Below, piece by piece: positions 1 to 64,000 of a stretch of DNA of 64,000 nt. Source of the stretch: Psammoneis japonica (lineage: Eukaryota); NCBI GenBank assembly GCA_008632985.1, contig QPGO01000067.1:320142-384141 (forward strand), read 5' to 3'. Below the pieces are notes generated by a model. It did no database searches and had not been told where the DNA came from. It was given only the letters and a program-made list of their open reading frames with translations. Both the position numbers and the translations under genes were made by a program. Position 1 is the stretch's first letter, and each line of letters begins with the position of its first letter.

Positions 1-3000
1 TGTGGCCACCGGCACCACAGGTGCGACTGGCATTGTTGTGGTCAGCAACTGGTGAGTTGGTCTTCTTCCTTTTTCTTGGCGGCGTGGTCAACAAGAACAC
101 CAAATGGAAAGAAAACAGGATGAGTGACATCCCAGAGAAGGCAAAAATGTGAAATCTGACAGCAAATGCAAGACGCAGTTCTCATCACCAGCATTGGACA
201 AGCACAAAATGATTGACAAGATGGCGCATGTGGACAGCACTCCTTCTTCTTCATGTCAATGTGATGTGATCATGGGACACAACTTGATGAGCAATCTTGG
301 GATCGTGCTTGATTTTGCAAATGAAGAAATCAAATGGGAAGATGCAGCTGTGCCAATGAAGGATGCACATGCACCATTTGATGCTGAGGGTGGTCTTCAA
401 GCTGATTGCCAATCACATGGAGGAATCTCACACCATGAAAAGTCTCAATGACAGGGTCAACAGGATCCTTGATGCTGACTGTCACACTGCTGACCTCAAC
501 AATGTGACTGCTGCAACAGCAACTCACCTTGCTCCAGAGGAGTGGAAGCAATTGAACTTTCTTCTAAAAAGATTCAAAAATCTTTTTGACAGTTCCTCAG
601 GTGCATGGGCTGGAAAACTGGTCAATCTTGCATTGAAGTCAGGGGCAACCCCACATCATGCAGTGCCATTTCCTGTTCCACAAGCCTTGGAGGCAACTGC
701 TTGAAAGGAAGTCAAAAGCCTCTGCAAGACAGGAATCTCAAGAAAAACAATCCACTTAGAATGGGCAGCTCCAACCTTTGTTCAACCTGAGAAAAATGTC
801 GGAGTTCAATTTTTGTCCAACTTTTGCAAGCTGAGTCAGAGGTCAATGTGCACTCCGCACCCCCCACCTGACATTCAAGACATGCCGCAGAAGCTCAAGG
901 GCTTCATGCATGCAACGTCATTTGATTTGAACATGGGATGTCATCACATTAAGTTGACACCATGCGCACATTGGTTGTGCACCATTGTGATGCCGTGGGG
1001 CAAATGTGAGCACTGCAGACTGCCTGTGGGAATTTGTGGAGCTCCAGACATTTTTCAAGAGCACATGAGTGACCTCATGGCAGGCTTAGAATTTGTCAGG
1101 ATGCACATTGACAACATGCCATGCCTGACATGTGGTGACTTGAAGGATCATCTTAAAAAGCTCAAAACAACATTTGCGCAACTTGACAAGCTGGTTTAAA
1201 GTCAATGCCAAAAAAAACCTTTTGTGAAACCCAAAGTGGATCATCTTGGGTTTCACATTTTGCAGCAAGGCATCAAACCAATCCCCCAAAATGTGGAGGC
1301 AATTCAATCTGTCGCTGCTCCCAAAATGACATTTTTTTGGCATGATCAATTGTTGTCAAGATGTGTGGCCTCAACAATCTCATGCACTTGCTCATCTGGC
1401 CAGACTCACCTCATCCAAGGTCAAGTGGCAATGGGCAAGCATGGAACAAAAAGCCTTCAAAAATGTGAAGCAAATTGTGTCAAAAGATGTGTTTTTGGCA
1501 AACCCAAATTTTGACAAACCCTTTGAGACAAGCACAGATGCAAGCAATTCTAAATTGGGTGCCGTCACATCACAAGACAAATGACCCGTTGCCTTCTTTA
1601 GCAGAAAGCCAAATGGAGCACAGATGCGACACACCACAATGGAAAAAGAGCTGCTGTCCATCATTGAAGCTCTTCTTGAGGAGTTCTGAAATGTGCTGTT
1701 TGGTGGCCAACAATTAAAAACATTTGCAGATCATGAAAACCCTGCTCATGAGAATTTTGCTGTGGACAGAGTCATGTGTTGGCATCCAACAACAAAAGAA
1801 TGCAGTCCTGAAACAATTTGCCTCATGGGCAAGGCCAATGTCATCACAGATGCAATCAGCCAACTTGCTGTGAAACAAATGTAACCCATGGAAAACCTCA
1901 GCTCTGTGAAGAATTGGCAGAAAAGACAACCCCTGAGTCCCACAACAACGTCTTTCTGTCAACACACAAAGTTCTTGACACTGAACAAAAATGGGACAAA
2001 GGCATCCTCTCCAAATTGTCGGATGCAACACATCACGCAAAGACTTTTCATGGAGGCAAGCAAGATTGAATGCTTGTGTGTCACAAGGGAAAATTGTCGC
2101 ACCCAAAGACATTGCAAAAATTGGTGACAGATTGGTGTCATGCATGCCTTCTGCAACCTGGCATGAACTGAACAGAAGAGACAATCTCACGACACTCATG
2201 GTGGTCCACCTCACCTGAACACATGCAAAAATGTGTGTCAAAATGTGAGGCATGCCAGAAATTTAAAAAGAGACAAAAGAAACATGGACATTTGCCTCTT
2301 CCAAGTGTGCAGAAGCAGTGCCACAGGAAAGATCATGTGTGGATCTCATTGACCCACACAAAATGCATCACAAAGGGAAGAAGAAACCCCTGGTCCTAAA
2401 ATGTTTGATGATGATGGACCCAGCAGCCGGTTGGTTTAAAGTTGTGGAATTTCCAAATGAGGAGTCCACAACTGTCACTGGATTTTTGGAAAGAACATGG
2501 CCAAGCAGATGCCCTTGGCCATCATCAATTGCCTGTGATCATGGAAGCAAGGTTGCTGGACATCAATTTAAAACTGTGGTCCAAGATGATTGTGGCATCA
2601 AATGCAAGCCCATGACCATGCAAATCTGCAAGCTGGTGCCATCACAGAGCATGTGCACCAAGTGCCGGGCAATGTGCTGTGCACATTTGACCTGCAAAAT
2701 GCTCCTCTAGACACAGAGGATTTGTTTTGTGGAATGCTGTTGGCAGCAGCCTTTGCAGTGCATTCAACTTGTCACACTGCACGCAAGCTGCACCAGGACA
2801 ATTGGTCTTTTGTCGAGACATGGCATTCAATGTCCAGCACATTGCTGGCTGAAAATTTGTTCAGAAATGAAACAAAACATTGCAAACAGAAACAACCCTC
2901 AAGAAAATGCTTGATGCACTCCTCACACCTGCAGGGCAGGAGAAAAAATGTTGCTCAAGAAAGACTCTAAAAAGTTGGAACAGCTCTGCGTTGGACCCTG

Positions 3001-3120
3001 CAAAATGACAATGGCACATGCACAGCACAGATCAAACACAGTGATGTCATTGATGCTGTCAACATCCATTGAATTGTGCCATTTAATGAGTGACTCTAAC
3101 GTGCAATTGGGGAGGCTGGC
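1..3120 (+). mobile_element. Degenerate Ty3/Gypsy LTR retrotransposon pol (protease-RT-RNaseH-integrase order), heavily mutated
   Basis: Fragments appear in Gypsy order: protease tail DVIMGHNLMSNLGIVLDF (149-451), RT DLNMGCHHIKL / PWGKCEHCRLPVG / FVRMHIDN (813-1199), RNase H TDASNSKLGAV..EKELLSI (1342-1884) and integrase CVDLIDPH..DPAAGWF..CDHGS (2318-2800). Many stops and frameshifts. The ends are not resolved. Confidence 0.9.
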
Positions 3121-4262
3121 GCAGCACGTGTTGTTGAGCAGAAGGAGTTGCACATGCTCACAATTGTGCGCCATCATGTGTGTCAATCGCAACACAATGG
3201 CGGATGCATGCAAAGGACAGATGAATCATGCAGATGTGATCTGATGTCAAAAATTGCAAACACGATTGAGTGACGATGATGACACATGAGATGTCAATGT
3301 TGATCATGTCTGGACAATCTGCTGCAACGATCTGATTCTCCGCACAGCAAGGCCTTTGGTCCACAGAAGCAGTGCAAAAGCTTTGGGCCATTGAGGGCTC
3401 CTTTGGAGAAACTTCAAATCTCAGCACAAAATCTGATCTCACAATTTTCCACTTTTTGTGATTTACTCTGCTTTTGTTTGCCACTCGTTCTCCGAGCACA
3501 GTGCACAAGCACTCAAAAATTGCGACAGAAAGATGGATCAAATGAGAAACTCAAAGTTCTGTCACATGCGCCCAAGCAAGAGCATGTCTTGAGCACTTGG
3601 TCAGTGTGACGGATGTCACAAAAACCTTCAGATGTGCTGTGCCTTGGTGTTTGACAGGAAAGATGATGCACCAACTTTGTTTGGCTGCTTTCATTGGAGT
3701 GGCGCGACAGTGGAATTTCTCCATGGATGCAAGGGGCCCGGCGATGCGCTTGACAACTTGCGGCTCAACATGTTGGCACATCTTTGGGAGCTGAGCTGCA
3801 ATCTCATGATTGGGCATGACCACAATCATGTCTCAGGCTTCAAAAAGCCCAGGGTGTGAAGCACGGACTTGGGGACAACCACAGAAAAACAAAGAAGGGT
3901 CAGTGTGACAAGATGCAAAAGCACACAGATTGAAACAGTGTCCAGCTAGAGACTCACTGCCAATGGAAAGGAACTGCAAGGTCAACAAGAGGTCAACACT
4001 GTCATTTCTCATGAGGCAGGTGGCGGTGGCGGGCAGGAATGTGCACGCACGCACGCTCCTGTTCTTTTCGCACCTCTTGATCTGCGAATTCCAAAAAATC
4101 GAATCCAACGCATCGTGTCTCGTACGACGTGTCAACTGCGTTCTTGCCTCGCCTGTTGTTGTTGTTGTTGTCAGCACAGCTCAGCAACGTACCGCATTGA
4201 CACTTCGCAACTGCTGTGCTTACTGTCTGTATGTCGAATACTCTTTCGGTCGTCTGCTCATC

Positions 4263-27194: not shown

Positions 27195-27899
27195 TATGAA
27201 ATACTGTAATGCAGGCTAGGTATAAGTTTTGGCAAACTTCACTCCATATCAACTCTGTGAGCTGCTTCTGTGTCTCTCTAGGTGCTAATTCATACAAGTC
27301 AAAGCAGTACTAGGGAATAGATAGAGACATACCTAGAGATTCATTACCGGTACAAGTGAACTCTAGACTCAGTCGATAGGTAACTCGAAGTGTTTCCCAT
27401 CGTTGGAACGTCTTCGTCTCCAAAAATACCAGCACAAAGTAGTCTAGGGCCCTACCTACTAGGGCCCTACTAGATAGAGTAGAGCTATCTTTGCGAGTTA
27501 CCGTAGTGCGAACGTCACCCGCTCCACATAACTCCAGAAGGGGGGGGGGGCAAGCAAGACAAGCGATCCTCTCAACTCGCGTAGAATTTGGACTGAACAT
27601 CCCATAAAGAGGACGTATTCTCTCCTCATTTTTCTCCCCACCCTTTTCTGTTTTTTGAACTTGATCTTGCCACCTTGCGAGAAACAGCATGCCGACATGA
27701 CACTGCACGCTGCTTTTCCTATTTACGCTCAAAGCTGAAAACAAACAGTGAAACAGTACCGCCAGTCCAAAGAGAGGGTGGTTGTGTGACGCGATCTCGA
27801 TTGGTCCTTCTCCTTAGTCTCTTTGAGGAGTTGACTTATCTTACGCTGACGCGAAAATCGGCTGAGAATTAGCGTGGACTGCGTGGCAACAGCGAAAAA

Positions 27900-43297: not shown

Positions 43298-43750
43298 TGC
43301 AACTCAAAATGACATGATCGATGCTTTGGTGTCAAACTTGATTCGTTCATGGTTTCTGCAACTTCGAGAGGGACGACCTGGATGATGATTCGTGTGAAAA
43401 CAACACGAGCGAAAAAAATGAGAACCCGTCGATCGCTGATCGCGCGCGCAATGTGACGACTGGTGACGTCGTCAGGACTTACCACTTCGTCTGTCCGACT
43501 GCCTACACTCAGAGGTGGACCTCTTTTGGTGCCTTACTTCTCCCTACTAGTAGACCCATCGAGGGAGGATTAGGAATGGCGCTACGAGAGCCAATCAGAA
43601 TTCAGCATTTGGGATTTCTACTTATAGGGGGCCCTCGGAAAGTCGAGGACTTTCCGACTAATTAATTAACATTTTTTCGGAAAATCTGACGCAATCATTT
43701 ATAGATGAGGAGGCTGAGACAACTCTCCAAAATCAGACACAAGAATCAAA

Positions 43751-46700: not shown

Positions 46701-47014
46701 TTAACGCGGCTCACGTTCGAGTCGAGGAGCAGTTCAACATGTTGCAAGCCGTGAGAAGCGCCCTGTCACAACAAGTTGCCATTGCATCGAGCATGAGCGC
46801 ATCCCTCCCATCTGTTCCATATCAAGTGCAACCGGCTCTTTCAAATCTTAATGATCTGATACGGGATCAGAGGAAGCAAGACATTGATCCATACTGTTGT
46901 CCTGTCTTCCTACAATACAAGCTGCAGCAAAGCTACAGTGTGACGGGGTGCCGACCAAGAGGTCGACCAGCGCATTCTAAGGATTGCCCAAAGAGACAGC
47001 AGTCAAGGAGGTAG
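43751..47014 (+). mobile_element. Intact 1087-aa putative DDE transposase (MULE-like catalytic signature; family not assigned)
   Basis: Intronless ORF with Cys/His clusters (CKRC..HHGH..C; YECNKC), SDHTF..NEKGQV, YSDTWP, LGLFHWMHRI (xxH motif), LEKAH and a C-terminal CC..GRPAH..C. No TIRs or TSD found. Confidence 0.65.
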
Positions 47015-48564
47015 ATGTTATCATTACTAGGCATACTTTATGTATTACTACTTTTGTTGACATTCTCGTGAGATAGCTACTACTCGTAGAAGCGATCTAG
47101 CCTAGAGACGCACAGTAGTGTTTTCGAAACAGAGCTGAGTTTCCATGAGTTACGAATTCACTATTTTATTTCTTATCTACCACACTTCTATAACTATTGG
47201 TTGTTGTGTCCTCCACATACTTCATCACAATACCACACTCAAATGCCACCTTTCAAGGGCAGGTGAACCCTATCGCAACGGAGATTCGGGTCTGCGGCGG
47301 TTGAAGGCACTCCCGTCCTTGGAAGCACCAGTCAACGCCTCACCGGGGGGCAACCCCTTGGCTCTCGTTGGCCGTCTCAATGTTCAGAGGTGGGGCCACA
47401 TGAACATTATTGCAGAAAAAAAATTACCGAGGCGCTGCTGCAGTCAGCAACCTCGGCAGTAGCCCGTGTTATTTAAAGACGAGGGCAACCTCGTCTGCCG
47501 CTTATACACGGACTTTTCCAAAAGTGGTAGATTGTAGATTACCAGCCAAAACAAACCACACCCACAACCAACATGTGACATCCATTCCATCATATCCCGG
47601 TCAACAGCGCTTGTGGTACCGCCGCACTCAGCAATTCCAATGAACCCTGAAAAGCCACCACTCCAACAACTTCTAAAGCCTCGTCAACGAAGGGTGAACA
47701 CTCGGCTGAAGCCAAAAAGGCAACAATACAAAGCATCAGCATGAGAGACGCCATGAATGATCAATGCTTAAAGGAGGGCTCTTCAATCTGTCAAGAACGA
47801 ACAGAAATTGCAACGCAAGAGCGGTGAGAGACGAGTTCAAAAAATGGAAAAAGTACCAAGCATTTCTTATCCATTTTTCACGTTTTTCATACATCTCTTT
47901 TCGTATATTCATTCATCAGAGAGAGTTTTAATGCGTGCTTTGTTGTCACAACAGTATCACAAGTGACGGCGACAATTTCGACTACCGGCTCTTGCAGGTC
48001 TCATGGTCGATTTTTTGTGTGGTGTCGGAGGGAAACTCCTGAATTGCGTAGATTTCTACGTAAAATTCATACTAGAGATACTTCAACACTACAATGTCTC
48101 GATCTGTGTCACCACACCAAATTACTTCAACATGGGAGCACCCGGAGATCTGACACATCGGGTGGTGAAACGGGAGAAAGAATTGACGATGGCTCTTCAA
48201 ACCACTTCTGCCTTTTAGATCAAGCTCGCTGCCCTCGCAACCCCTTCCTCTCTCCTTCCTTTCTCTCCTCCTCCTCCTTCTTTCTCCTCTCCCCTCCCCC
48301 CCTCTCTTGGAGTCACTAACCCCCCCAAAATCACCCATAGTAGAGAGGGCCCTACTTTCTCTAGCACAAGAGAGTCGTCGAGAGAGAGTCCTCAGTATCT
48401 GTTTTCGTTCGACGCGACAGTGAGACCACTGCATCCACCTGCAATGAAATCACAATTAATAGCTCGACCTCCATGACAAACCAGAGAACTGCAGTAGGAG
48501 CGCGCCACATCCCTGCTATTGATCCAGTCCTGCGTGTACCGACTGTGAGTAAGAGTGCTTTGCG

Positions 48565-51189
48565 TTACATCTTTTCGGGCGCGTCAGGCTCTCTTGGATA
48601 CGTTTGGACCCCTTCTGATTGGGAATTGTGACTACTAGTATGACTGTGCCTCACAATCGAGCCTGCGGAGGTCGAACCTTGCTGAGGAGTCCCCTCGTTG
48701 GTCATTCCGGATATCTTGACGGCACCTGTGAACCCCCCTCGTTTCTTCTCGCCCTGAGCGTCATTTCTTCGATGGACAGCGAACACTTTCGGGCCAACTA
48801 TAAGGCACAATGTGCTCATTGGGAACGTCCAGATCAAAAGCGAATAACCAATGTATCGTCCGTCCTAAAGGAAACAGTTTCAAAATGAAGTCAGATCTTC
48901 AATCGAAGCACGTAGATTAAGAATATTTTGTCAACTTACGGTTGAAACGTCGTAAAGCAAAGGTATCATTGGGAGAGCAAACAAGAGGACCTCGAGTTGA
49001 ACCAGTACCATTACGAAGATCCAGCGTGATTCCGAGAAAGCGTCATCGACATCCTTCGTTTTCCACGCCATGTAGAAAGTTAGAAGTGTTGGTACGAGCA
49101 GGATGAATACAAGCGGAATGATGAAAGCGATAGCTTCGTTCGACTTGCACTGCCCAATACTCTCGCCTGTTATAAAATTAGTCTCGGTTCGAACCCAGGT
49201 GAGGCTATCGAGCCCTGTCCAAAGACCCAACACTAGGAGGGCGGCGGCTGCCAACACCGCCGAGGGCCAGGCAACGTGAATGACATCAACCTTGCGCCGA
49301 GCAAACTGCAGAACTTTGTTAACTCGCCAGAGCTTGCTAAAAAGACCTCCGTACGTTAGAATATGTCCCAGGGAGGACAGCCACGGTGTCGCCATGCAAG
49401 CTCGGCTAAGTTGCTCTTTTGACCATCCGTAGCTTTCGTCGAACGAAATTGTAATAATCGCGGAGACTGACACTGTGGCACCAAGACAGATCAAATAGAG
49501 AAAGTGCGGTTGAGCTGCCCTGACATAACGATGCTTACGGTAAATAAAAACCCAGACCGCAGACGCAACTGCCGTAGCCATTGCAATTCCGACGAAAGCT
49601 AAACCAACCGCCCGAACGCCTCGGCTGAGGTAATTCTGTTCAGGTGTGTCTCGAAGCAGATCTGGAGGCACGGTGCGACCATCAGCATATACAGTGTCAC
49701 TAATGTGCAGAAAAGTACCTTCGGGGTTTGGGTCTTTTGGAGGTGTAAAGTAATCGTACAGAGTGCCATTCGGAAAGATAAAATCTGTTGACACTTCCGG
49801 TACGTAAAAAACCTCCGCCAGAGTCCAAATGTCCTCGATATCGATCCCGGGTGGGAAGTTGTTGAGAATACCCCAGATTGATGTTGCCGGGTGCCTTGCT
49901 CCCCGCAAGCTACATTGCCTTTCGTCGCAGAAGCGAACTACGCCAGACGCACCGGTGAAGCGAGCAGAACGAATTCCTTGCACGAAGGTGTCGATAGGTA
50001 TGTCGTCCGTTCCGTTTGCAGAAGCCCAAGCCAAGCATGCACCTATCCCAGTAGATATGACGGCATCGTACACGAACGAAGTCCCCCATTCGGGATATAA
50101 CTTGACAAAAAAGTCATCCTCTGCTTCAAACTTTCCTGGAAAGTCAGGAACAGCAAGGTTGAGCTTTTCTACTTCAGCTGGGCCTTGACTCCACCAAGCT
50201 CGTAGGAATGGATCTTTCTCTTGACCCAAGTAATATCCTTGCAACGGAGTTATGAAGATACTTCCCGCCAGGAACTTTCTTATTGAGGGATCATTGTCTT
50301 CGAAATATGGATCGTAGTCTCCAAACCAAACCCACATGTAATCCCCATTTGTGAGACCCATATCCACTGCTTCCTTCGCCAGTAGCGGGATCTCAATAGT
50401 CGGAAGCTCCGTTGCAACAACAATGGTACGATATCCAGAATCAATAACACCTTGCAAAGCTCTTCGAATAGTCCTTTGGTCACTGGTTGCTGGGCTAGCT
50501 AACGAATTATACGGAAAAGCTTGGTTATCAATACCATGCTCATCCAGCAAGATTTGGACTGTCTCGCGTTTGTAAATACCAGTTTCAGTGAGCGCGAAAA
50601 CAAACGCTACAAAATCGGTTCGACCTTTGTAGAGCAGATACCTTGTCAGTACCGCGGCACTCGTGATGATTTCCGGGAAGACCTGCGAAGTGTATGGTGA
50701 CGTTCGATCAAGTGCCCGAAGACTGAAAGCCCTGTAAGCAGTGACTGGGAACTTGAGCGCCGCAGCCAAGGTAGATAGTTCCAAAGTTGGCTGGTCATGA
50801 AAGCCCCCTGCTACAGCGCATGGGGTTTCAGGCTGTGCCAGCAATGTCTCCGCAGCCTTATTTGTATAAGAACCGGTGTCGAATATCTTGGAATTCTCAA
50901 ACTGCACAGGGCAATCGCGAAACTGCGCAAGTTCTGGGACAACAGAAGTGTTGCGACTATTGAAGTGATCAATCGCCATAAGAGCTGCAGCGGCATGGGA
51001 CATACCAACATTGCCACATTCACCGCAATCAAAAGAATAATACGGTACTTTTCCGAAGGTGAAAGGTACAAATGTGTATAGGTTGCACGAACCATTTCTT
51101 GGTAAGATCGCCTCTACACCGATAAGCGTGCATATTCCGATAATCGTTCGCATCACTTGGCACCGCAACGACGACTTCATTGCCGGCAT
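48565..51189 (-). CDS. Class C (GABA-B-like) GPCR, paralogue 2
   Basis: Collinear with 40609-43297 and highly similar to it. Same intron position after YDVST (~48867-48939); last exon ends APEKM*. Confidence 0.9.
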
Positions 51190-51929
51190 TCTTTCTTTGA
51201 CAGATTGAAGATGTTTTCCTTCTCACTCTCGCCAACTTTCTTGTACCGTACTTACAGTACAGTACAGTACAGTAGGGCTACCGGTACTACTGTGCTCGAG
51301 TCGGACGAATCATTCGACTGAATGAATGACGTCTGCTGTTTTTGTCATTTTGCTTCTTTTTGTGCTTTCTTGTTTTTTGGATTTTTCGCTCTCAAATGGT
51401 CGAATTGTCACAGCTTTGACCTTCAGACTAACCAAGGGACTGACGCTTCAACAGCCCATGACATTTGGTGCTGCTGTCAAGAGCATCATTTCTTTTTAAT
51501 CACACCAAGAATGAGTGTGGCTGTGCAGGTTTTTCACCACACCACTTTTGTCTCGTCATGGCGATCATGTCTCTTGGCTCTGCTTGCTGGCAAAAAAATG
51601 TTTGGGAGAGCAGCCTGCATCTCTTTGTCTGGAGTGCCCATGTCTTCACACCTCCAGCCACTCTGGCTGCAGTGTGTCATGTCATGAACAACACAACACC
51701 ATGAGAAGATGACAATCTCTCTTGCACCAATGCAGAGAAGGCCAGCACAGCAACGAGCGGCTCTTTCTTTAGGAGGTTGCTGATCATCAGGCCGTTCGGA
51801 AAAGGCAACCCCAGTCCATGGGTGCAACAAAGTCACTGTGGCTGCTGCTGTTGCTGCAGCAGTTGAGAGTGTGTGTTTTCCAAATGATGAGCATGTTGTG
51901 TTGATTCCAAGCCGTTCCCCAGTCGCCCA

Positions 51930-52130
51930 AGTTGGCAAAACTCACGAAAGTTGACAAGTTTGCCAAAGCAGACAAAGTCACCAAATTTGACAAAGTTGCA
52001 AACTTGCCAAAGCTGACACCAAAGTCAACAATTTTGCCAAAGTCACCGAAGTTGAGAATTTTGCCAAAGTTGACAAAGTCGCCAAAGTCAACAATTCTGA
52101 CAAACTTGCCAAAGTTGACAAACTCAAAAT
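51930..52130. repeat. Degenerate ~9-bp-period tandem repeat
   Basis: Units such as aaagttgac, aaagtcaac, aaagtcacc, aaagtcgcc, aattttgcc and aaacttgcc, repeated about 20 times. Confidence 0.8.
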
Positions 52131-55100
52131 GACAGATGTGTCAACTGCCCTCTCTGTTGCTCTCTGACTGCTGCTTTCTCTGCTGTCTGCTGATGCACTC
52201 TTGGTCCAGCTCTGGTGGTTGGCTGTGGTGCAAGCCATGAGCACCAGACCTCAAACTGGAGGAGCACCAGGTCTGAGGAACATGGAGTTGGAGCTCTGGT
52301 GGCTGAAGAGCTGCAAAGGGTGGTGGCATGGGCTGCAACCAAGAACTCACTCTCTCAACTCATGAATGTGCAGTGCAACATTGATGTTGGAACATTGGGG
52401 TGAGAGGTGGTTTTCACAGGACAGACAATGTTGCAGAGCAAGACATGCCAACAATTGCAGACAATGTTGTGGTGAATTTGCACTTGCAACTCAGGTTGAG
52501 TTGCGAGTCTTGTGCTCACTTTTTAGCATCTGAACCCAGCCAACACACAGCAGTGGTCAATGGCACAGGGGATGCATTTGCAAGCAATGCAGTGAGTTCA
52601 GGGTTGGTGAGACTAAACAGGTGCCAGCTGGCAAGCTGTGAAACTCCAGTGCAGAAGCTGAAAAGTCACAGCATGACACTCAAAGGAGTGACATTGTTCT
52701 GAGGCAAAGATTGTTGGGTTGCTTCCTTTGACAAAGATTTGTGTGACAACACTGATCCAGTGTAGACTGCAGTCTGTCTCACAAATTATGGTGGACAGGA
52801 GAGGAAGTTCCCAGAGATTGTAAAAACAACACACACCAATGCACACATGTTGTGTGATGTTGGCATGTCCTTTGCTGGCAACAAGGGTGGCCAGACTTTG
52901 CAGAAAAAGCCATCTTCCAACAAGTGGTTGTGCCTTTGGGAGATGCCATGAACCCCAAACAGTGTCATGGGACATGAGCAATTGGTGGCATCTGGAGTGG
53001 CCATGTTCTTGCACTCATGTTGACTCCACAAGTGTGCAACAAACTGGGGGCACAAACACTGTGGGTTGTGGTGGTGCCAGTGGTTGGATTGGAGGAGCAA
53101 GCGCACAAGAAAGAAGCTTGCAAGAACATTGGGAATGCTGGTGGCAAACACATGTCATCAAAATGGGCTGGAAATCCTTTGTCATGTGATGGTTTTCATC
53201 TTCACAGTGTGTCATTGATTGTCAGCTACCTTCATCATCACAATTCACAGACATGAGAAAGGGCAGTTCTTCTTTGTTGAGAGAGTTCATGGCTCAGGAA
53301 ATGACACGCACAACTCAGCACACATCATTTTTTGGGGTGAGTGCATTGTTGCTGGTGCTGTCATCATGCATCACATCCATCACTGTGTGCTGGAACAAGT
53401 CATCATTTGGCGTGACAAGGACATCATGCTGCAGTGGTTGTTGTGGTCAGTTTGCAGTTGTGCGCCAATGTCTTTGTTGCAAAAATGATGGCAAAGAGTG
53501 AAAAATGACAACCTGGAAGGAAAGAAATTGATTGAAGCAAGGAGGAGGGTGTTGGTGAAAACATCTCACAAATTTTTGCAGTTTTTGTTTTGAAAGTTCA
53601 AGTCCATTCTTGACAGAATCTTTCATTGCACTTCTGACCTCTCACCCATGAGAGAACTGCATCTACAACATGTTCTCTCTCTTGAACAAATGAACAAACA
53701 AAATCTCTCTCTCTCTCTCTCTCAACAAGACAATCCATTGACAAATTTTTGCACCTGTGATTGCACTCTCCACAGGTGGCAAAATTTCTGCAAAATTGAC
53801 CATGGTGATCACTTTGGATGTGACTTTGAATGATGTTCTGATGCTGCTGGTTCACTTTCAGTCACAAATCTGGCATTGCCAAAGTTGTCATTTGAGGTTG
53901 GCAGTTGATTTTTCCAACAGTCATGAATTTGCAATGTTTTGCTTTGTGCCCTGGCATCTTGTTCAGAGCTGAGTTAGCTCATTTGTTTGTTGGAAGAACT
54001 TTGGCTTGATTGCCTGTTGCCTGTTTTCTTTTTGTGTTTCTGTTGCATTTGTCTCTTTGTTGCATTGGGCACCACACAACCCAGCCACCAACCCATTGTT
54101 TGCATGGCAACAGCGCACCACTGTTGCAACTCCCTTTGTCCTTGTTGCTTGACTGACAACAAACAACAATGAAAAGACTCTCCTTTCAAAATGAACTTCT
54201 CATTGAAAACCAACCCACTTTTGATGGACAGCACAGCTGCAAACTTCAATCCTTTCCCTTTTTCCATTGTCAATTTGTCATGCTTTGTCAGTTGATCATT
54301 TGTGCTTCTTGTTGCTGCAAATGCTCATCAACTGGTTTGACCTCATTGTCATGTCACAATTTGACAAATTCCAACATCAACCTAGATCACACCAGAATGG
54401 TTCAATCTGCACTTCATTCAATGCCACTTTCTTGAAGCTGTTGATTGGCAACAAATGTGCTGCAAGCACTTTTTGGGGTGCCAAGTCATCTGGGCCAACA
54501 TGGCTGCGATTTGATTTTGTGTTTTTGTTTTGGTCCATGCTGGCAAATTGCACTCTGTTGTGGCTGTGGGGCAGTGGATTTCTGCCAGTGAACCACCAAA
54601 TCATGTCAACTGTCTGTGCAGCTCTTCTTTGTTGCTCAGTGGATGTGCCAGCTTTGTCTCTTGCAGAAGATTGTAGAGGGTGGTTCAGAAGGTGCAATGC
54701 TTGCTCAAGTGCTGGCACCAATTTCTTGCTTGTCAGAGAGAAGGACCAGCACACTCCATGCACCTGACTCAAGGGACCCAGACTTCATGAGTGGCAGGTA
54801 CAACCAAGGCTTTGGTTGCAGAAACCTCATTTGACATTGAGACTTTGCACAAGGCCAGGCATGGATGATTGACACCACATTGCAACAACTGTGTTGTCAA
54901 TGAGATTGGCCACAAAGACTTGCTCTTGACAATGCAAAGCAAAAGCATGTGGTGTGCAATCAACAAAGCCCAATGTCACATTTCTGACTCACATGCCACC
55001 AACCAATCCTCCCACAAGATCCATTCTTGCTGCTTGAACTTTGGATCAGGGCAAATGGAAGCGGGCACTTGCCTGGTTGTTGCAGCTCTTCTTTGTTGCT

Positions 55101-55284
55101 TCCATCCAACAAAGAGAAACTTGTTTCAAAAATGCCACTGCAAATTTATCCACCATCCTCCTCAAGCCATTTTGCCGCTGCACACAAAGCAACTCAATGT
55201 TTCTGGCATTTGTCCCAGTGCATTGCTCATTGAAGTTTTGCTTGCCCGCTGCTGCTCAGCAATCAAACCTTTGAACAAGCAACC

Positions 55285-55760
55285 CTGGAGTTTGGAAATT
55301 CACATCTGCTGTTGCTGGGAACAAGGTGACAGTTGTCGCTCAGGTTGGCTGGCACAGTCATGAGGTCATTTCACTCTGGAGCTTGGAAATTCAAGTCTGC
55401 TGCTGTTGCGCACAACATGCCATGGGGCCACAACATTTTAAGACCAATCTTGCAATGCCCAACAACAGCTCTTGAAGCATCACTTGGGGTCTGCCAAAGA
55501 CCACCACAGTCCTCAGCTTGCTGTCATCAGGTTGGTTGGCACTGTCACAGGGTCTTTGGATTCTTGGGAGTTTGAAAACTCAAGTCTGCTGCTTTTGGGG
55601 ACAAGGTGACATGGGGCCAGCCACAGTGCCACATGATCAACCTCACAATGCTCAAGCACAGCTCTTGAAGTCACACCTGTCCCACCACCAACACCACCAG
55701 TGCCCCCTCAGATTGCAGCTGCCAGGTCAGATGGTGGTGTCATCATGGGGTCCATCTGGA
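55285..55760. repeat. ~190-bp repeat family, cluster 1 (2-3 degenerate copies)
   Basis: Core ctctggag(c/t)ttggaaa(t/c)tcaagtctgctgct..catggggcca..ttgcaatg..cctcagcttgc..caggttgg, shared with 60960-62110. Confidence 0.8.
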
Positions 55761-57394
55761 ACACCAATGATCTTTTCGAATTGCAGCCAGGCAAATTCTT
55801 TGTTTGATCCAAGACTGTGCTGATTTGTCCAATCTGCATTTGTGAAATGTTCAATGACAAACATCCACATTCCTGAAGTCAACATTTTATTTGCCGCATG
55901 GACAAAACTGCAATGTGGTTTGAGCTCATGTCAATCCCTGAGTGAAGTGTTGCCCACTTTCTTGGATCAAAATCTCTGCAGTCATGCATCAAGTTTGACT
56001 CTTCTTTGTTCCAATTTTTTTTCTCGCTGTCATTGCCATTGTTTGTTTTTGGGCAATGCCTCTCACCTTGTTCTTCTTCATTTCTTTTGCAGCACAGCAT
56101 CTTTTGGTCCTGCTCTTTGCCAAGTGATTGCTGCACCATGTCATTGATGTTTGCTTTCCTCATTGCATTGGCCTTGTCATTTCTCCAACATGCTTTGCCA
56201 GGGATGCAGTCTGATGGTCTTGTTTGTCCTTGGTTCAAACATTCTGGGTTTGGTTCTGTGTGTGGTCTCAGCCAGCATGTTGCTGGCAACTGCCTTCATT
56301 CCATGGGTCCAACCAAGTCTTTTAGTTGTCTGCATTGCAGACAACATGGTCTTGACTCCAAAAAGCAGGTGTGCAGCTTCTGCTGTTCTCCCTTTGCCAG
56401 GAACACAGTTGCACTCAAGAGCTGAAACATCCTCCCTGTCCCTGTCTGGTTGGACATTGGTTTCTTTGCTTCCTTGGGATGTCCAATGCTGACACAGACC
56501 CAACAACATTGCCCTGCATCTTCAGAAGCATGCTCCCCGTCACAAGAAGGAGGAAGCTTCCCTTTGATGCTCTGCTGGCATTTCAAACACTGCACCACTT
56601 CATTCTTCTCTCCAGACAATGACACATTTGGCGACAATGACAACAACTCAATGTTTGGTTTTGCCAATGACAACCCCCAGCCCCCTTCCTGAAGAGTCCA
56701 TTTGGACCCAGATCCACCTCCTCCCATGCACTTCAACAATGCTTCTCCTGTCAGCTCCCCCTCCACTGGAAATGGTCTGCAACCCCCTCTGTCAGATGCT
56801 CTGGTTGATTGCACACTGCTGCCAATCTAGCCACTGCCAATGCAGCCGCTGCAAATGCCCACCAATTTGTCTTCTTTGCCAATGATGGTGTGTCTGCCCT
56901 TGGAGAGGAAAGCCCTTTGGATGTTCCTGAGCATCATTGCAGTTGATTCTGTCAATGGCACTTTGGGTCCTCCTTTGATGCCACATCCTGCAGAAGACAC
57001 AACTTCTCCTTCTGCAAGCATTGGCTTGGCAATGCTTCCTTCCTTGTTTGATCATGAGAATCCACTGGGACCGGTGTGCAGGCATGCCCCTGATGAGGAC
57101 TTTGACATCCCTTTGGTTTGTTCTTCACCCAGCATGGCACCCATGGTTTGGCTGTTCCATCTCTGTTGTTGGTCAGGTGCTGCAATTAACTTCATCAACA
57201 AAGTCATGAGAATGGTCCATGAAGAGTGAGCATGCCAAAAAAAGATTGGATTTGACAAAGCCTCCAACTGCTGTGGCAATGAAGCAACTTCTGGAGCTGT
57301 TCCCCAATGTCCCTCTCCCCCACACTGCTGTGCAAGTGAACCCACAACAGAAGAAAAAGACAAGACCAAAGGCATTGAACAACTTGCACAAAAA

Positions 57395-57830
57395 GTGTTG
57401 GATCTCCTGCCTGACTTTCCCCTGAAAGATGCTGCTGCAAAGAGGATTGCTCTGCAGACAGCAGTCCATGCACCAGCAACATGTTCCAGATCTGCATGTT
57501 CCAGATCTAACTTCTGGTCAAAGGGGGAAATGCACCTCAATTTTCTAGAGACAGATTTGAGTCATGGATGCAAATCATTTGCAATCTTTGTTGTGTTCCT
57601 TGATGACACAACTCAGGACAATGGCACCATTGAAATTTGGCCAGACAGCTGCAATGCCCCATGTCAAGCAAGAAGGAGTGTGAAAGACAGCAGGCAAGGT
57701 TGGGTTTGAAAAAAAGCTTTTGGCAGGTGCAGCAGGTTCTGCCTTTGTTTTTGAAGCCAGGATGTTGCACTGTTTGTTGCTGAACAAAACAGAGTTGGGT
57801 TGGAAGAACATGGTGTGTCTGACTCACAAT
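57395..57830 (+). pseudogene. Decayed PhyH-like 2OG-Fe(II) dioxygenase
   Basis: GEMHLN (HLD if CpG decay is reversed), FVVFLDDTTQDNGTIEIWPDS, then after a stop and frameshift GSAFVFEARMLH. Confidence 0.55.
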
Positions 57831-59449
57831 TTTGAATCAGCCAAGGTGCAGCAGTGCATTGTTGTAAAAATCAAGGATTGATGAAGGCACTCACACTTGG
57901 CAATTGTGTCAAACAATGTTTCAACCAATGGTGACATTGTGTCACTGCAGATGACAAATGATGATTGGCGTCTGCCGCAGATTTGTGCAAAGAGAGTCAT
58001 CAATGGATCAACACAGATTGGCAGTGGCGAGCTTTGCCAGCAAAGGATGAGGAACACCACACCACTCTAACAAGATTTTGGGGGTGAGAATTTGCATTTG
58101 ATGTGCTTTGCACAGTCAATCATCATGAAATGCCTTGGTGCCATGATGCCAGCTCTTTTTTGTGTGCTTGTGCAGGAGATGCACATTGAAGCTGCCACCC
58201 CATGACAGATCCATGGGACAGGCACAGGAACAAAACAGGATTCATGGCTCCACTCATGGGCACAGCCACAAAACATCCCATCAAGTGCAATCACAATGGC
58301 TCCCTCTGGACATTTGTTTGTTGTTGGCACCTCCTCAAGGCAACTTTGTGTTGTGTTTTCATCAAACAGGAACCATCCATTGCAGTTGTTGAAAAAATCT
58401 TGGTGTCAAAACCACAGTGCAAACCATGAACTGAGTCATCTTCATCAAGAAAGGAGCTGTTGATCAAAGTGGGGCACCTTTCTGGTTCATTGGGCCAAAT
58501 GCCAGCACACCACTTGCTGCCCAACTGGTGGCAAGGATGACGCAGCTCTCAATGCTGCAGGCCCAACAGTTGGGAAAAAGCAGATGACAAGAAGCAATTG
58601 CCAAACCAGCATGACCACCACCAGCATCAATGAAACTGAAAGTGCTGTTGAGCCCACCACCAAACAGGGATGGGTGGCCCAAAACCTTGGCACCTGAGTT
58701 AAAATTGACCATCCCTCCATGTGACTCTGCATTGCCACCAGCAACATGACCAAATTGATGCTCAATCTCCAGCATGTGATGGCAGAGCACAGGGAATGTG
58801 CTTTCTGGCAGTTGTGGTGGTTTGACACAACCACATCCATTTGGATCAACAACCGTTCTTTTTGGGTGATGGTGGCAGCAGTTGGAGACAGAAGCATTTT
58901 GTTTGTTGGGACAAATGAGATTGTGGTGCATTGGTGGTGCGAGGGCATTGGAGTGTGGAGGGAACAATCAACCAGGTTGCTGAAAAAAATTGTGGGAAGA
59001 GTTGCAGATTTTAAACAAATGAAAAATGCAGACTGGCACATGCAAAAATGGCTCACATTGAAGCACAATTCAAAACAGTGGAAGGTTTTGAAAATTTTAA
59101 ATGTCAGGTTGGAAACAAGCTCAGAAATCTGATGCAGAGCCCTGCTCAAATGAACCTGGGAGAAGCAAGCAACAGCAGAATGAGAGAAGATCACCAGCAA
59201 AGTGCACTCATTTTGTGACTTCTTGTGTCACAAACCAGACAGAACACAGCAAACAGTGCAACACAAGAGCTGCCTGTTGGAAAGGGAGAGATGATGGAGG
59301 AGATGGTTGTCACAGGAGCAACAATGCAAGATGGTGGGAGTGCAACATCAAGTGGCAAGCCAGGTTGGAGAGAGCAGGACAAAGACCAACAGTTGTGTCA
59401 ACAAGTTGTGGTTGGCCATTTTGGCACATGCTGCATCACAGTTGCCATG

Positions 59450-60420
59450 AGTCCTGTGGTGGTGGGATTGTTCAACACACAAACAAATGAGCATGGGGAG
59501 CTCAACCGACTCCAGTTGGTGAGCAGAGACTCCATTTCTGTTGTGACTCCCATGGAGGAATGTCATGTGATGGATCAAGCTCCAGCAGTTGGCAGGAAAT
59601 TGATGGGGTCTATGTTGATGAGGGTGGTTAATGAAAGTGTGTGGCTGCATTGCAAGTTCATGACAATCTTCAACAGAGAACTTGCTGCAGGAGGAGAGTG
59701 CACAAAAATGGCTCTGCAGGAGTTGAGGAGCATGGCATCTGCGCTGGAGGCATTCTGTGGTGCACAGAAAGAGGCATTCAGGAAAACCTCAACCACAAAA
59801 GGAACAACATGCAGGACAACACAAGGAGGAAGATGACAGGCAAGCCAAACAGTGCAGGTGTTTGACACTCATGAACAAGATTGTTCAACGGGTCAGGTGT
59901 TGACTCCTTTGTTTTTGTCAAGGCAGCTGCTGCTTTGGAGGGGTCACTGGTTCAGTGCAAAGAGTTCATTGAGGGCAGGGCTGACAAAGACAAGTGCATG
60001 TGGTTCTTGGAAATGGCAGCACCAACTGTGGTGGGCCAAGCACAGTTTGGCAGAAGCATGATGGATTTGCTCCAAGAGTGGCTCACCAAATCATTGGAGG
60101 CCGTTTGCTCTGCTGGCACACAAACTGCTGTGACAAGGCAGTTGACATGACAGAGAAGTTGGAGAATGACACCAACATTGCATGGCAAAGAAAGTGGACA
60201 GCAGAAGATGCTAAACCTGCAAAGTGCACAGCACAGGAAAAAGGGGAATCAGCTGAGAGCAGCCAAGGATGGAGCATGGATGGGATCAAGAAGTGCAACA
60301 AACTGTGTGAGTGGGTGATGAAAGACCAAGAGGAGAATGAAGGACTTGGTGCATGCCAGCTCAAGGAACAGAGGCAAGAGAAGGCAAACTCTTTCAAGGA
60401 GGCAGAGAAGAAATGAAAAA
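59450..60420 (+). pseudogene. Decayed ORF of unknown, probably transposon-associated, protein
   Basis: Consecutive protein-like fragments ending AKCT..GWSMDGIKKCNKLC (AKYT..GWSTDGIKKYNEL if the mutations are reversed) and a Glu/Arg-rich tail. Confidence 0.35.
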
Positions 60421-60959
60421 GAGAGGAGAACAGGGAGGAGAGAGAGAGGACAGATGGGCTGCACTGGTGATGGGAGAGGACCTGCCCTTGCAGCCAGTGG
60501 CTGGTGCCAGCAATGGTGCGGAAGCAATTGCAGCCATGGCAACAACACAAACTGGTGCATGAGTGCAAATTGCAGCAAACAATGAAATCCAGCAGAACAT
60601 GGAAAAAACAATGAGGCAAACTGCAAGGCAATTGTCAGTCAAGAACAAATGGCAGTTGCAACATTTGCTTTTAACACAATGATGCAAAGAGACAAAATGC
60701 AGAAAGACATTGCAGGTGAAGATGGTGGATTGAAAGTGACAAGAGATGTGATGAAGAAACTGGGAGCAGCAAATGACAAAAAGGGTTGAGATTGAAGTTG
60801 TGGGCAAGAACATTTGCACTTCAAAGTGGGGTGCAATTTAAAATCGAAAAGAAGCTCACAAACTCAATTGGTTCTCAACTGATGTTTGAAGAAAGACTTG
60901 GCTTGCAAGTTCACAACAATCTGAAATTGGAGTCAAGAAACACCCAGATTGTGACAGGT

Positions 60960-62110
60960 GGTCAGACACAGATTGTTGGCATCCCAGATGTCCTTTCACT
61001 CTGGAGCTTGGAAGTTCAAGTCTGCTGCTGTTGGAGACAAATTGACACGGGGCTGCAACACCATGACATCAACCTTGAAATGTCCAACCACAGTTCTCAA
61101 AGTGTTGCCTGGGGTCCACCAGAGATCCCCAATGGCTGGTGCTGTCATGGTTTTTTTTCACACTCTGGAGTTTGGAAGTTCGAGTCTGCCATTGACAGGC
61201 ACACATGACATGGGGCCACAACACCTTCAAGATCAACCTTGCAATGTCCAGCCACAGTTCCCACAGTGTCACCTTGGGTCCACCAGAAATCACCAGTGCC
61301 CTCAGCTTGCAGCTGTCAGGTTGGCTGGTGCTGTCATGGGGTCCTTTCACTCTGGAGTTTGGAAACTCAAGCATGCTGTTGTTGCGCACATTGTGGCATG
61401 GGGCCACAACACTCCAAGATCAACCTTGCAATGTCCAACTGCAGTTCTTAAAGTCACACCTGGGATCTGTCAGAGATCACCAACACCCTCAGCTTGCTGT
61501 TGTTGTCAGGTTGATTGGTGCTGTCATGGGGTTCTTTTACTCTGGAGTTTGGAAAAGTTCGTGCTGCTCCTGTTGGGGACAACATGACATGGGGCCACAA
61601 CACTTCACGACCAATCTTGCAATGTCCAGCCACAGTTCTTGAGGACACACCCAGGGGGGCACCACCAGATTGGTTGGCACTGTCATGGGGCCCTTTCACT
61701 CTGGAGTTTGGCAGCTCAAGTGTCTGCTCCTGTTGGGGACAATGTGACATGATTGAGCAACAACGCCGCAACACCAACCTTGAAATGTCTGGCCACAGTT
61801 CTTTGAGCAAGTGTTGCCTGGGGTCTGCTGCCAGAGATCACAAATGCCAACAAGAGCTTGCTGTTGTCAGGTTGGTTGGCACTGCAATGAGGTCTTTTCA
61901 TTCTGCTGGAGTCTGCCTTGGAAGTTTTCAAATCTGCCCCTGTTGGGGACAAGGTTGCATGGGTCCACAGCACACTGCAACATCAACTTTTCAATGTCCA
62001 ACCACAGTTCTTAAAGCACTGCCCTCAGCCTGCTGCAACTTGTTGGGTGGGTTGGTGCCATCATGGAGCCACTTTGCTCTGAGGCTGGGAAGCTCAAGTC
62101 TGCTTTGCTG
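60960..62110. repeat. ~160-200-bp tandem repeat, cluster 2 (about 7 degenerate copies)
   Basis: A ctctggag(c/t)ttgg core recurs near 60999, 61163, 61350, 61540 and 61699, with more diverged copies near 61905 and 62078. Confidence 0.85.
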
Positions 62111-62405
62111 TCTGTGCCAGCCCACTGGAAACAAGAGTGCACTGACATGGGCAGCCATTTGTCAGGGAAAGCTGGTGTTGGCAGGAGGTGCTGCAGTTGC
62201 AGCACCCCCATGTCTCTCGGGCCTGCTGCTCTGGCTCTTTGCTGGCACATGTCCAGCACAATGGGTTGTTGTTGCAAGTGTGTGGGTTGGATTGACAGAA
62301 AATGAAGATGACTGGGTGGAAGAAAACAATGACTCCTTGCTGCTGTCTAAACAGCAGATGAGTCTCCATGCAGAGACCGTCACAGGAGCCGAAAGACTGG
62401 TGTCG

Positions 62406-62537
62406 TGACATCGGTGCTGCTGTTGTCATTCTTGTGAGCCGTGTGGCTTGAAAGCAAACCACATCGCGCGACGCGTGCGGAACTAAGAGCACACACAATT
62501 GTGTGTGACAAACTAAAATCTTGTTCAAATCCTGTCA
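62406..62537 (-). repeat. Probable 3' LTR of the Copia element
   Basis: Follows a polypurine tract GGGGAG on the minus strand (62538-62543). Termini TGACA..TGTCA form an inverted repeat. CpG-rich sequence stops close to this end. Confidence 0.6.
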
Positions 62538-64000
62538 CTCCCCAGTTTGCTTGAGGGGTCAACAGCGACAGATTCGAAGTCGGATTGGTTGAAAGCCTCG
62601 GGATCGAAGTTCCAAAACATTAGAGGACGAAGGAGGTTCCAGATTTGGGAGCAACCCCAGTGCTTGCTGAGGATGTCAGCCGGGTTGCGGGAGCCTTGGA
62701 CAAAATGAAACTCGAGGAAACCGGAGGCAATCGCCTCACGCACACGATGGAATGAGAGGGCGGTGTGTCGCGTGTGCAACTTGGAGTGCGGGATGGCAGC
62801 ACTGTCCACAACCGACTTGTTGTCCCCAAACATGCAGCATGTTTCACGAATGGGAACGCCAAGGCAATGCAAAGTGATGCGCAGATCAATGATCTGCTCG
62901 ACACACGTCCTTGCGGCAACAAACTCGGATCCATGCGTGGCAGTCTCGACTGTTGCTTGTTTCTTAGAGAACCAATCAGCCGGAAACTTGTTGAGAAAAT
63001 GGAGGATGCCGGTGACAGAGCGGCCAGTGAGCATGCAATGGAACAAGTTCGCATCGATGCAGTGCGTGGTGGTGACGAACTTGCCAAGCGGCTCGGGCGC
63101 ATCTTGTGGGAGCAGCTCTTCTACCTCCCCATGCACGGATTGAGCCCAATCGCACACGGGCTCAGGGAGGTCCGAACAGTCGGGCTCCTCGGTGTGCACT
63201 CGGAGGGTGCCATGACGCATCTTGGAGAGGAATCCGCAGATGCATTTGGCACGGTCTAGGTGGCCTTGACGGGGCACTGCACGGAAGCCAGACAGGGACA
63301 TGACAGCTGCAGCAATGTCAATGCGACCCAGAGATGTGGCCCATTGCAGGGATCCAATCAAGGATTGGAGTTGGTGGATGCCATCCGGTTTGAGTGATTC
63401 AGAGGTGTCGAGCTCAGGGTGGTCACCCTTGTCAAGGGGTGAAAGCACATCAGTGCAGGGCTTCTCCCCAAAGAGGCATGTGCAGTTGTCAACCATGTGC
63501 TCAATGCACTTGCGGGGAGCAAGGCACAGGGTGCCGTCTGGGTCACAGGTGAAGTCGCAGCCAAGATGGAACTCCAATGGTCCAGCGCCCTTGAGCTTGA
63601 ACTTGCACTTCTCCATGAGGGTGTCTGCAAAAGCCTGGGGGTCCTTCATGGTGAAGGCCAGGTCGTCCACATGCACTGCCACGTGTTCGCAGTGGTCACC
63701 ATTCCTGCGCAGCCAGATGTCGGGTTCAGCTTTGCATGGAAAGAAGCCTTTGGCACGCAAGCAATCGGCAAAGCGTTCATGCCATCTGAGGCCGGAGCTG
63801 CGGAGTCCGTACAAGGCCTTGTGGATGACAAGGATGTGTCCTTCCAGGTCGCCGAACTCGGGGCCTGCCACGATGCACAGTTTCTCCTTGGTCGCAGCTT
63901 CAAGGCAGGCATTCCCAATGTCAGTGGCCCAGGTCTCTAGTTTGTTGAGTTCGGCCAGGAAGATCATCATTGCAGGCCATGGAGAGACACCACTCCGGAA
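62525..64000 (-). mobile_element. Ty1/Copia (diatom CoDi-type) retrotransposon RT-RNaseH, truncated by window end
   Basis: DIGNA(C)L, KALYGLRSSG, AV(H)VDD, DANL, RSVTG, SKKQATVETAT(H)GSEF, GDNKSV, FHRVRE, NPADILSK. 481 aa open, with only one Tyr. Confidence 0.95.

Follow-up and report, generated by a model that had tools for sequence, protein, structure and literature searches.

Motif-specific A:T to G:C change in repeat domains of the diatom Psammoneis japonica runs ahead of CpG decay and independently of it

To our knowledge, hypermutation of repeats as a genome defence is known only in fungi, and there only for cytosine. RIP, which is found in Neurospora and other fungi, acts mostly on CpA and creates TpA and stop codons. 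The fungal change is described as C to T (PMC7882544). Relatives of the RIP enzyme (RID, DNMT4 family) are reported to occur in diatoms with function unknown, DNMT4 having been recorded in 31 of the 60 species surveyed, and diatom transposons are described as CpG-methylated (PMC9998398). In the hyper-editing of retroelements and viruses by APOBEC3 and ADAR, deaminase-driven, context-specific transitions cripple retroelements (PMC4866542).

Among these systems, fungal RIP is the closest to what is seen at the locus described here: the change acts on DNA and on repeats, it consists of transitions only, in a fixed neighbour context and on both strands, it goes to near saturation, it kills transposons and it ends close to where the domain of repeats ends. 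It differs from RIP in that A appears to be changed to G within 5′-TAY-3′, so that TpA is destroyed, no stops arise, the GC content rises, and the host is a diatom. The hallmark of RIP, i.e., C-to-T change with gain of TpA, was not found, and the three depleted blocks each have a TpA o/e between 0.05 and 0.10. APOBEC3 and ADAR work on single-stranded cDNA or RNA before integration and leave strand-biased G-to-A or A-to-G changes, whereas the pattern in the window is strand-symmetric, extends to repeats that are not retroelements and is bounded by chromosomal domain borders; neither strand asymmetry nor a restriction to retroelements was observed. A full-text literature search, with most subscription journals outside its reach, returned no description of TpA erasure or of A-to-G hypermutation of repeats in diatoms. 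This fast, sequence-specific mutation process of repeats appears to be undescribed so far.

The window, i.e., the whole stretch of DNA that was analysed, comprises 64,000 nt of P. japonica (assembly GCA_008632985.1, contig QPGO01000067.1, positions 320,142-384,141, forward strand). A gene block is flanked on both sides by domains that are nearly free of TpA and CpG, with TG/CA doubled. The blocks and the features that lie outside the Copia copy are:

1..4000 (no strand): left depleted domain, a decayed Ty3/gypsy element; TA o/e 0.068, CG o/e 0.24 (0.19-0.29)
1330-1581 (+): RT_RNaseH_2 (Pfam), gypsy remnant, in a frame other than that of Integrase_H2C2
2172-2396 (+): Integrase_H2C2 (Pfam), gypsy remnant, in a frame other than that of RT_RNaseH_2
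~4000-51290: gene-dense block with ordinary dinucleotide content; TA o/e ~0.5-0.8, CG ~0.9-1.1
51243..51292 (no strand): GTAC-rich short repeat, intact, with several GTACA-like units, upstream of the GPCR gene, which starts at 51222
51293..62291 (no strand): older repeated DNA, TAY and CpG both lost; TA o/e 0.046, CG o/e 0.073
60997-61696, with similar units to ~62100 (no strand): tandem array of 159-190-bp units (TRF)

The borders of the depletion coincide with gene edges and not with element ends. The left border falls within 3947-4123. At the right border the last TAY is at 51288 and the next one at 52763, i.e., 1475 nt are free of TAY, and the change is sharp to ~10 nt. The GTAC-rich repeat at 51243-51292 may be a promoter or a boundary element. 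No TAY-free island was found inside the gene block, the longest TAY gap there being 274 nt.

The older DNA on the right had been described at the outset as poor in both dinucleotides, and this was borne out: positions 52001-62389 hold 33 TpA (o/e 0.046) and 42 CpG (o/e 0.073), with TG and CA at 1.8-1.9. None of the 90 ORFs of at least 70 aa within 51293..62291 matched Pfam. Sample sequence was available as k-mer contigs (Logan, run X1). All three runs belong to one sample and one study, with the library type not on record, so that they cannot count as independent evidence on the assembly. Over 60001-62278 the summed depth is 374-5020, as against ~35-74 for the single contigs listed (16 of 5223 pieces), so that this part is repeated in the genome. 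The tandem array at 60997-61696 is likewise repeated elsewhere in the genome, and the sample contigs hold many unit-unit joints. No protein domain was found in the array, which may be a satellite of a heterochromatic domain. Positions 51400-62524 and 1-4000 contain 118 frames of at least 70 aa on both strands, the longest being of 297 aa, with a Pfam match in 2 only. Open frames are cheap in TA-free DNA because TAA and TAG cannot occur there, and gene callers will over-predict in such DNA (long spurious ORFs).

The right end of the window is occupied by a Ty1/copia copy, hereafter the Copia copy, with the following features:

62292..62510 (-): 3′ LTR, its outer end approximate (within 62292-62354), CpG-rich from 62378 inward
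62525..64000 (-): RT-RNase H C-terminal part of Ty1/copia pol, 491 codons open to the window end, stop TGA at 62525-62527
63662..63673 (-): RT catalytic motif HVDD, YVDD in relatives; TAY to CAT after a purine

The preliminary description had recognized a Copia block with an unbroken frame of 481 codons; the frame indeed has 481 codons counted from the ATG, and it matches RVT_2 (PF07727) with an E value of 1.1e-13 (51.9 bits, cut-off 31.6). It has 2715 protein relatives at E ≤ 1e-10, with PF07727 in all of the 120 listed, and is 62-71% identical to copia pol proteins, some of them named from Cylindrotheca, and 66-71% identical to diatom ones. No relatives were found among viral contigs. Metagenome contigs provided two relative loci only, both unconverted, which served as baseline; to one of them, L001, the frame aligns by tblastn without gaps over 439 codons (residues 1412-1850 of an intact 1852-aa pol). 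The copy resembles the diatom Ty1/copia elements, presumably those called CoDi-type, in having an RVT_2 reverse transcriptase, an RNase H, a stop codon and then the LTR, but it is a mutated corpse. The probability of 491 codons without a stop is ~3e-5. The frame thus exceeds chance length, and it has no indels, which together indicate that the copy is young. Its openness is no sign of function, because the change makes no stop codon and TA-free DNA has TGA as its only stop. At the catalytic column (110), where 98% of 60 homologs have Tyr, the copy has His (CAT, preceded by GTG). With HVDD in place of the catalytic motif and 16 Tyr lost, the protein is predicted to be dead although the frame is open, and on the same grounds a working element was rejected.

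The outer end of the LTR is marked by a leap of the summed depth from 374 (bin 62145-62278) to 216,351 (bin 62279-62412). A contig of the flank reaches to 62321, LTR contigs begin at 62354, and the segment of extreme copy number (~62292-62510) follows the Copia stop at 62525. Summed depth is 8,000-57,000 over the Copia part and 116,000-216,000 over the LTR, as against 35-74 for the single contigs listed (16 of 5223 pieces). The CGs that come after 62218 stand at 62378, 62390 and 62404 onward. A CpG step near the LTR end had been noted before, which is roughly right: the jump in copy number and the contig ends place the step, at 62378, 25-85 nt inside the LTR. The TAs left in the LTR are all YTAR (62348, 62484, 62514). 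No further fragment of this family was found elsewhere in the 64-kb window. We read the Copia copy as a young but dead member of a diatom Ty1/copia family with very high copy number, lying beside older repeat DNA. It had been called a nested insertion; one junction is visible, and the element runs off the window. The copy may also have arisen by DNA-level duplication of one that had already been converted.

Within 62521-64000, where about six TpA and many CpGs had first been reported, there are exactly 6 TpA (o/e 0.084) and 74 CpG (o/e 0.644, ~3 per 60 nt), and ~71 TpA would be expected from the base composition (Poisson P ~2e-23). Over 1317 homologous bases, L001 has 48 targetable TA, 7 YTAR and 105 CG, and the Copia copy has 2, 3 and 67, respectively, i.e., relative to L001 a loss of 96% of the targetable TA and of 36% of the CG. 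The loss can be followed in the protein. Tyr makes up 0.2% of the residues of the Copia copy and 4.6% of those of 120 homologs, and Cys 4.9% versus 1.2%; in each of the 120 longer homologs the Tyr content is normal (minimum 3.1%). At the 20 Tyr columns, defined by Tyr in at least half of 60 homologs, the Copia copy has TGY for Cys at 12, CAY for His at 4, Phe at 2, and Tyr and Leu at 1 each. When converted public copies were paired with their nearest relatives, reverse changes (Cys or His to Tyr) numbered 0-1 per pairing. Selection on codon usage was rejected as the cause of the TA loss, since conserved Tyr, including the catalytic one, were replaced.

The TAs that are left define the motif. 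In depleted DNA 47 of the 63 remaining TAs are YTAR, as against 295 of 1909 (15%) in genes (P 3e-24), and this share is 24/36 in the old right-hand DNA, 17/19 in the left domain and 6/8 in the Copia block. Relative to genes, all tetranucleotides that contain TAY on either strand survive at 0-0.07, whereas CTAG survives at 0.18, TTAG at 0.47, CTAA at 0.55 and TTAA at 0.73. The trinucleotide ratios are 0.01 for TAT, 0.03 for TAC, 0.11 for TAG and 0.26 for TAA, so that the 3′ neighbours rank C,T >> G > A; YTAR sites survive because the change is far slower at TAG and TAA. AA steps are intact relative to genes (AAC 1.23, AAT 1.06; AAY and AAR ratios 1.0-1.24). GC-biased gene conversion was also rejected, because AA, AT and YTAR are spared. 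The preceding base governs the outcome at Tyr codons: after a pyrimidine 9 of 9 became TGY, and after a purine (n = 7) 3 became TGY and 4 CAY (Fisher P 0.019), i.e., all four His replacements follow a purine. Judged by sequence context, it is the A of 5′-TAY-3′ that is changed to G on whichever strand has the motif or, equivalently, the T of 5′-RTA-3′ that is changed to C.

This equivalence leaves room for a route through thymine, in which T in 5′-RTA-3′ would be modified (e.g., to 5-hydroxymethyluracil by a JBP/TET-type enzyme) or damaged, and then read or repaired as C, with the same change in the duplex. The motif, strand and symmetry data are explained equally well by T to C in RTA and by A to G in TAY, nothing in the data separates this route from deamination of adenine, and in dinoflagellate DNA 5hmU is known to favour TpA steps. 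We know of no case, however, in which 5hmU:A pairs yield clean T-to-C transitions near 100%, and we consider the thymine route unlikely.

The Copia copy also shows in which order TpA and CpG are lost. It has lost 16 of 17 Tyr (94%) and 5 of 20 CGN Arg (25%; Fisher P 3e-5), its 22 Arg columns being CGN in 15 cases, AGR in 2, TGY in 3 and CAY in 2. The ratio of the rates of TAY change and CpG transition decay is ~7-10. Over 306 conserved columns compared with 120 homologs, there are 44 differences: 15 are of the TAY type, 6 of the CpG type, 1 is another transition, 13 are transversions and 9 are multi-step, the last two groups being mostly divergence of the lineage. The preliminary description proposed that TA conversion is nearly saturated before CpG decay has gone far; the order holds (16/17 versus 5/20), but CpG decay has already reached 25-36% and is not negligible. 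That the conversion is fast is supported by the 15 TAY-type differences, as against 6 of the CpG type and 1 other transition, and by the existence of Tyr-converted copies with 0/19 Arg lost.

The same order is seen between blocks: TA is saturated throughout, and the CG o/e is 0.64 in the Copia copy, 0.24 in the gypsy domain and 0.07 in the old right-hand DNA. With TA saturated and CpG intermediate, the gypsy domain (1-4000) represents a third stage, which stands between those of the Copia block and of the old DNA. Furthermore, among the 40 of 896 variants listed, CG is present in 65-98% of the depth at 63058, 63195 and 63241, where the Copia copy has TG, and at 62714, 62732 and 63050 the Copia copy has kept a CG that is lost in 79-86% of the depth. 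This agrees with CpG decay in progress in both directions between the Copia copy and the other copies in the sample.

In public sequence data the two losses come apart. A total of 389 relatives were aligned to the profile, and 370 of them cover at least 6 Tyr and at least 6 Arg columns; a loss threshold of 25% was applied. Neither loss was found in 347/370, the Arg (CpG-type) loss only in 13/370, the Tyr-type loss only in 6/370 and both losses in 4/370; these relatives being ORF predictions, copies with a change of CGA to TGA are too rarely sampled, and the Tyr-only class is inflated. Of the 23 decayed relatives, 19 have one loss without the other. The occurrence of both single-loss classes indicates that the two decays are independent. 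Examples of the Arg-only class, picked after seeing the table, are P0089 (Tyr 0/14, Arg 10/19) and P0307 (Tyr 0/9, Arg 9/13). In these two and in P0266, P0268, P0095 and P0079, 6-10 conserved Arg are replaced by Cys, His, Gln or Trp, with Tyr unchanged. Such relatives represent CpG decay without TA erasure, presumably in diatoms without the TAY process, and part of the decoupling may be due to a difference between species that have this process and species that do not. Examples of the Tyr-only class, picked in the same way, are P0081 (10/14), P0032 (5/14) and P0052 (4/14), all with Arg 0/19; in P0012, Tyr is converted at 2/14 and Arg lost at 0/19. Along this graded series (2, 4, 5 and 10 of 14 Tyr), other changes number 11-20/241, with no excess over the median of ~6%, which shows a stepwise process that is well advanced before anything else happens.

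These data bear on a different origin of the TA loss, i.e., as collateral of the repair of deaminated 5mC, in which a T:G mismatch would be patch-repaired and an error-prone polymerase would miscopy T in TA. Both losses share the same domains; polymerase eta, which acts in antibody hypermutation, has a WA hotspot and an A-to-G bias; and repaired deaminations leave no trace, so that timing alone cannot exclude this origin. Set against it are the AA steps, which are not depleted, the 13/370 relatives with heavy CpG-type loss and no Tyr loss (e.g., Arg 10/19 with Tyr 0/14), the four copies with 2-10 of 14 Tyr lost and Arg 0/19, and the strict 3′ pyrimidine rule, which differs from the WA motif. 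The pattern of polymerase eta, with A mutated after W and a link to cytosine deamination, is not what was found, as AAY and AAR are kept and 19/23 decayed relatives are decoupled. A repair by-product is thus distinctly improbable in our judgement, in line with the preliminary description, which had argued against it: the decoupling (13/370 of the CpG type only) and the untouched AA steps support this point. Deamination of 5mC itself is the likely cause of the CpG loss in the window. It gives the same products (TG/CA) in the same domains, but it cannot remove TA, it is ~7-10 times slower, and it is seen in 13/370 relatives without TAY change.

Several observations place the TAY change on DNA, in situ. 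In the Copia block the products are balanced between strands (TGY 85 versus RCA 87). Among four units of the array 60997-61696, CA-versus-TG alternatives occur at 14 columns, as against 5, 4 and 2 columns for the control double transitions; the units therefore were converted on DNA, after the array had been formed. Over 60001-64000, all 30 of 30 bins have a summed depth of at least 216, as compared with the ~35-74 of the single contigs listed; all of the DNA covered there is repeated, and the change may be confined to duplicated DNA. In addition, less-converted copies of the Copia element exist in the same sample: at 62935 (among the 40 of 896 variants listed) 35% of the summed depth has A, which gives ATAC in place of the ATGC of the Copia copy, and at 62397 the consensus of 10 loose-end contigs reads CTAC where the LTR of the Copia copy has CTGC.

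A deaminase of the ADAR, ADAT or APOBEC type might instead have edited the RNA or cDNA of the element before integration, so that the TA-free state would have been inherited. The element is a retrotransposon, and at its very high copy number a converted copy could have spread in trans. This is difficult to reconcile with strand-symmetric changes in which Cys and His both occur, with the same signature in the decayed Ty3/gypsy remains and in array units that were converted independently in place, and with a domain that stops at gene borders and not at element ends; moreover, the 3′ neighbour preference of ADAR differs from one with Y far above G and A. We therefore regard editing before integration as very unlikely. 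Finally, systematic miscalls at modified motifs are known from nanopore data, and the runs found are of one sample with no library type on record, but it is scarcely credible that modified bases of heterochromatin were misread by sequencer or polisher and that TA and CG are real in the cell, because the X1 contigs (depth 35-74 for those listed) differ from the depleted flank at 2/466 and 4/980 letters only, 0.89 of the sampled 31-mers of 46001-56000 are present in that run, a share too high for noisy reads, Tyr is replaced by Cys or His in the same way in copia ORFs of unrelated assemblies and metagenomes in public data, and miscalls would not choose between TG and CA by the neighbouring base, and never CG.

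The results show that A:T is changed to G:C at the DNA level, in a specific motif and within limited domains, faster than CpG decays and independently of that decay. As the preliminary description had suggested, the agent is probably enzymatic, given the trinucleotide specificity and the sharpness with which the domains end. For the reading as a whole, i.e., conversion of TAY in a young Copia copy after its integration together with a separate, slower loss of CpG, we have good though not full confidence. After integration, a mutation process restricted to the domain of repeats, which is probably heterochromatic, would act on DNA and change A to G in nearly every 5′-TAY-3′ of either strand, so that in the duplex TA would become TG, or CA when the motif is on the other strand. 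The rate of this change would be ~7-10 times that of CpG transition decay and far above that of other transitions, and owing to this speed the change would saturate while most CpGs are still present. As no stop codon can arise from it, the frame would stay open while Tyr is replaced by Cys or His. The loss of CpG would be a second, independent and slower process, presumably deamination of 5mC. The chemistry that we favour would be deamination of adenine to hypoxanthine, which pairs as G, in DNA, as part of a genome defence similar to RIP. It is conceivable, and we propose it tentatively, that in some diatoms a natural enzyme deaminates adenine of chromosomal dsDNA at 5′-TAY-3′ in a RIP-like defence, rewriting new repeats within a few generations. 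If so, it would be the first case, in any organism, of DNA hypermutation directed at adenine, with the laboratory adenine base editors as its artificial counterpart, and its phyletic pattern could be traced through the Tyr-to-Cys/His scars in transposon ORFs.

The Copia copy beside older DNA thus provides evidence that orders the two decays in time and shows them to be separate processes. If a major algal lineage has a second system of this kind, with adenine (or thymine) of a three-base motif as its target, diatom genome evolution would have to be read differently, and this would suggest where natural DNA adenine deaminases may be sought. Dating of transposons in diatoms by CpG or by identity would be wrong, and the annotation of repeat ORFs would be affected, both by long spurious ORFs and by dead polyproteins that look 'intact'.

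Some minor observations concern the gene block. The host genes of the window have few or no introns. The S28 peptidase has its best named relatives in Attheya sp. (67%), Cylindrotheca closterium (62%) and Nitzschia, Pseudo-nitzschia and Ditylum (59%), which places the host among the diatoms. Two class-C GPCR paralogues, with an ANF receptor ligand-binding domain and 7tm_3, lie at 40871-43303 (-) and 48931-51222 (-), near the domain border. A 171-bp unit is repeated 1.9 times with 90% identity at 29921-30256, within a TPR-bearing frame of 1598 aa at 27873-32669 (+).
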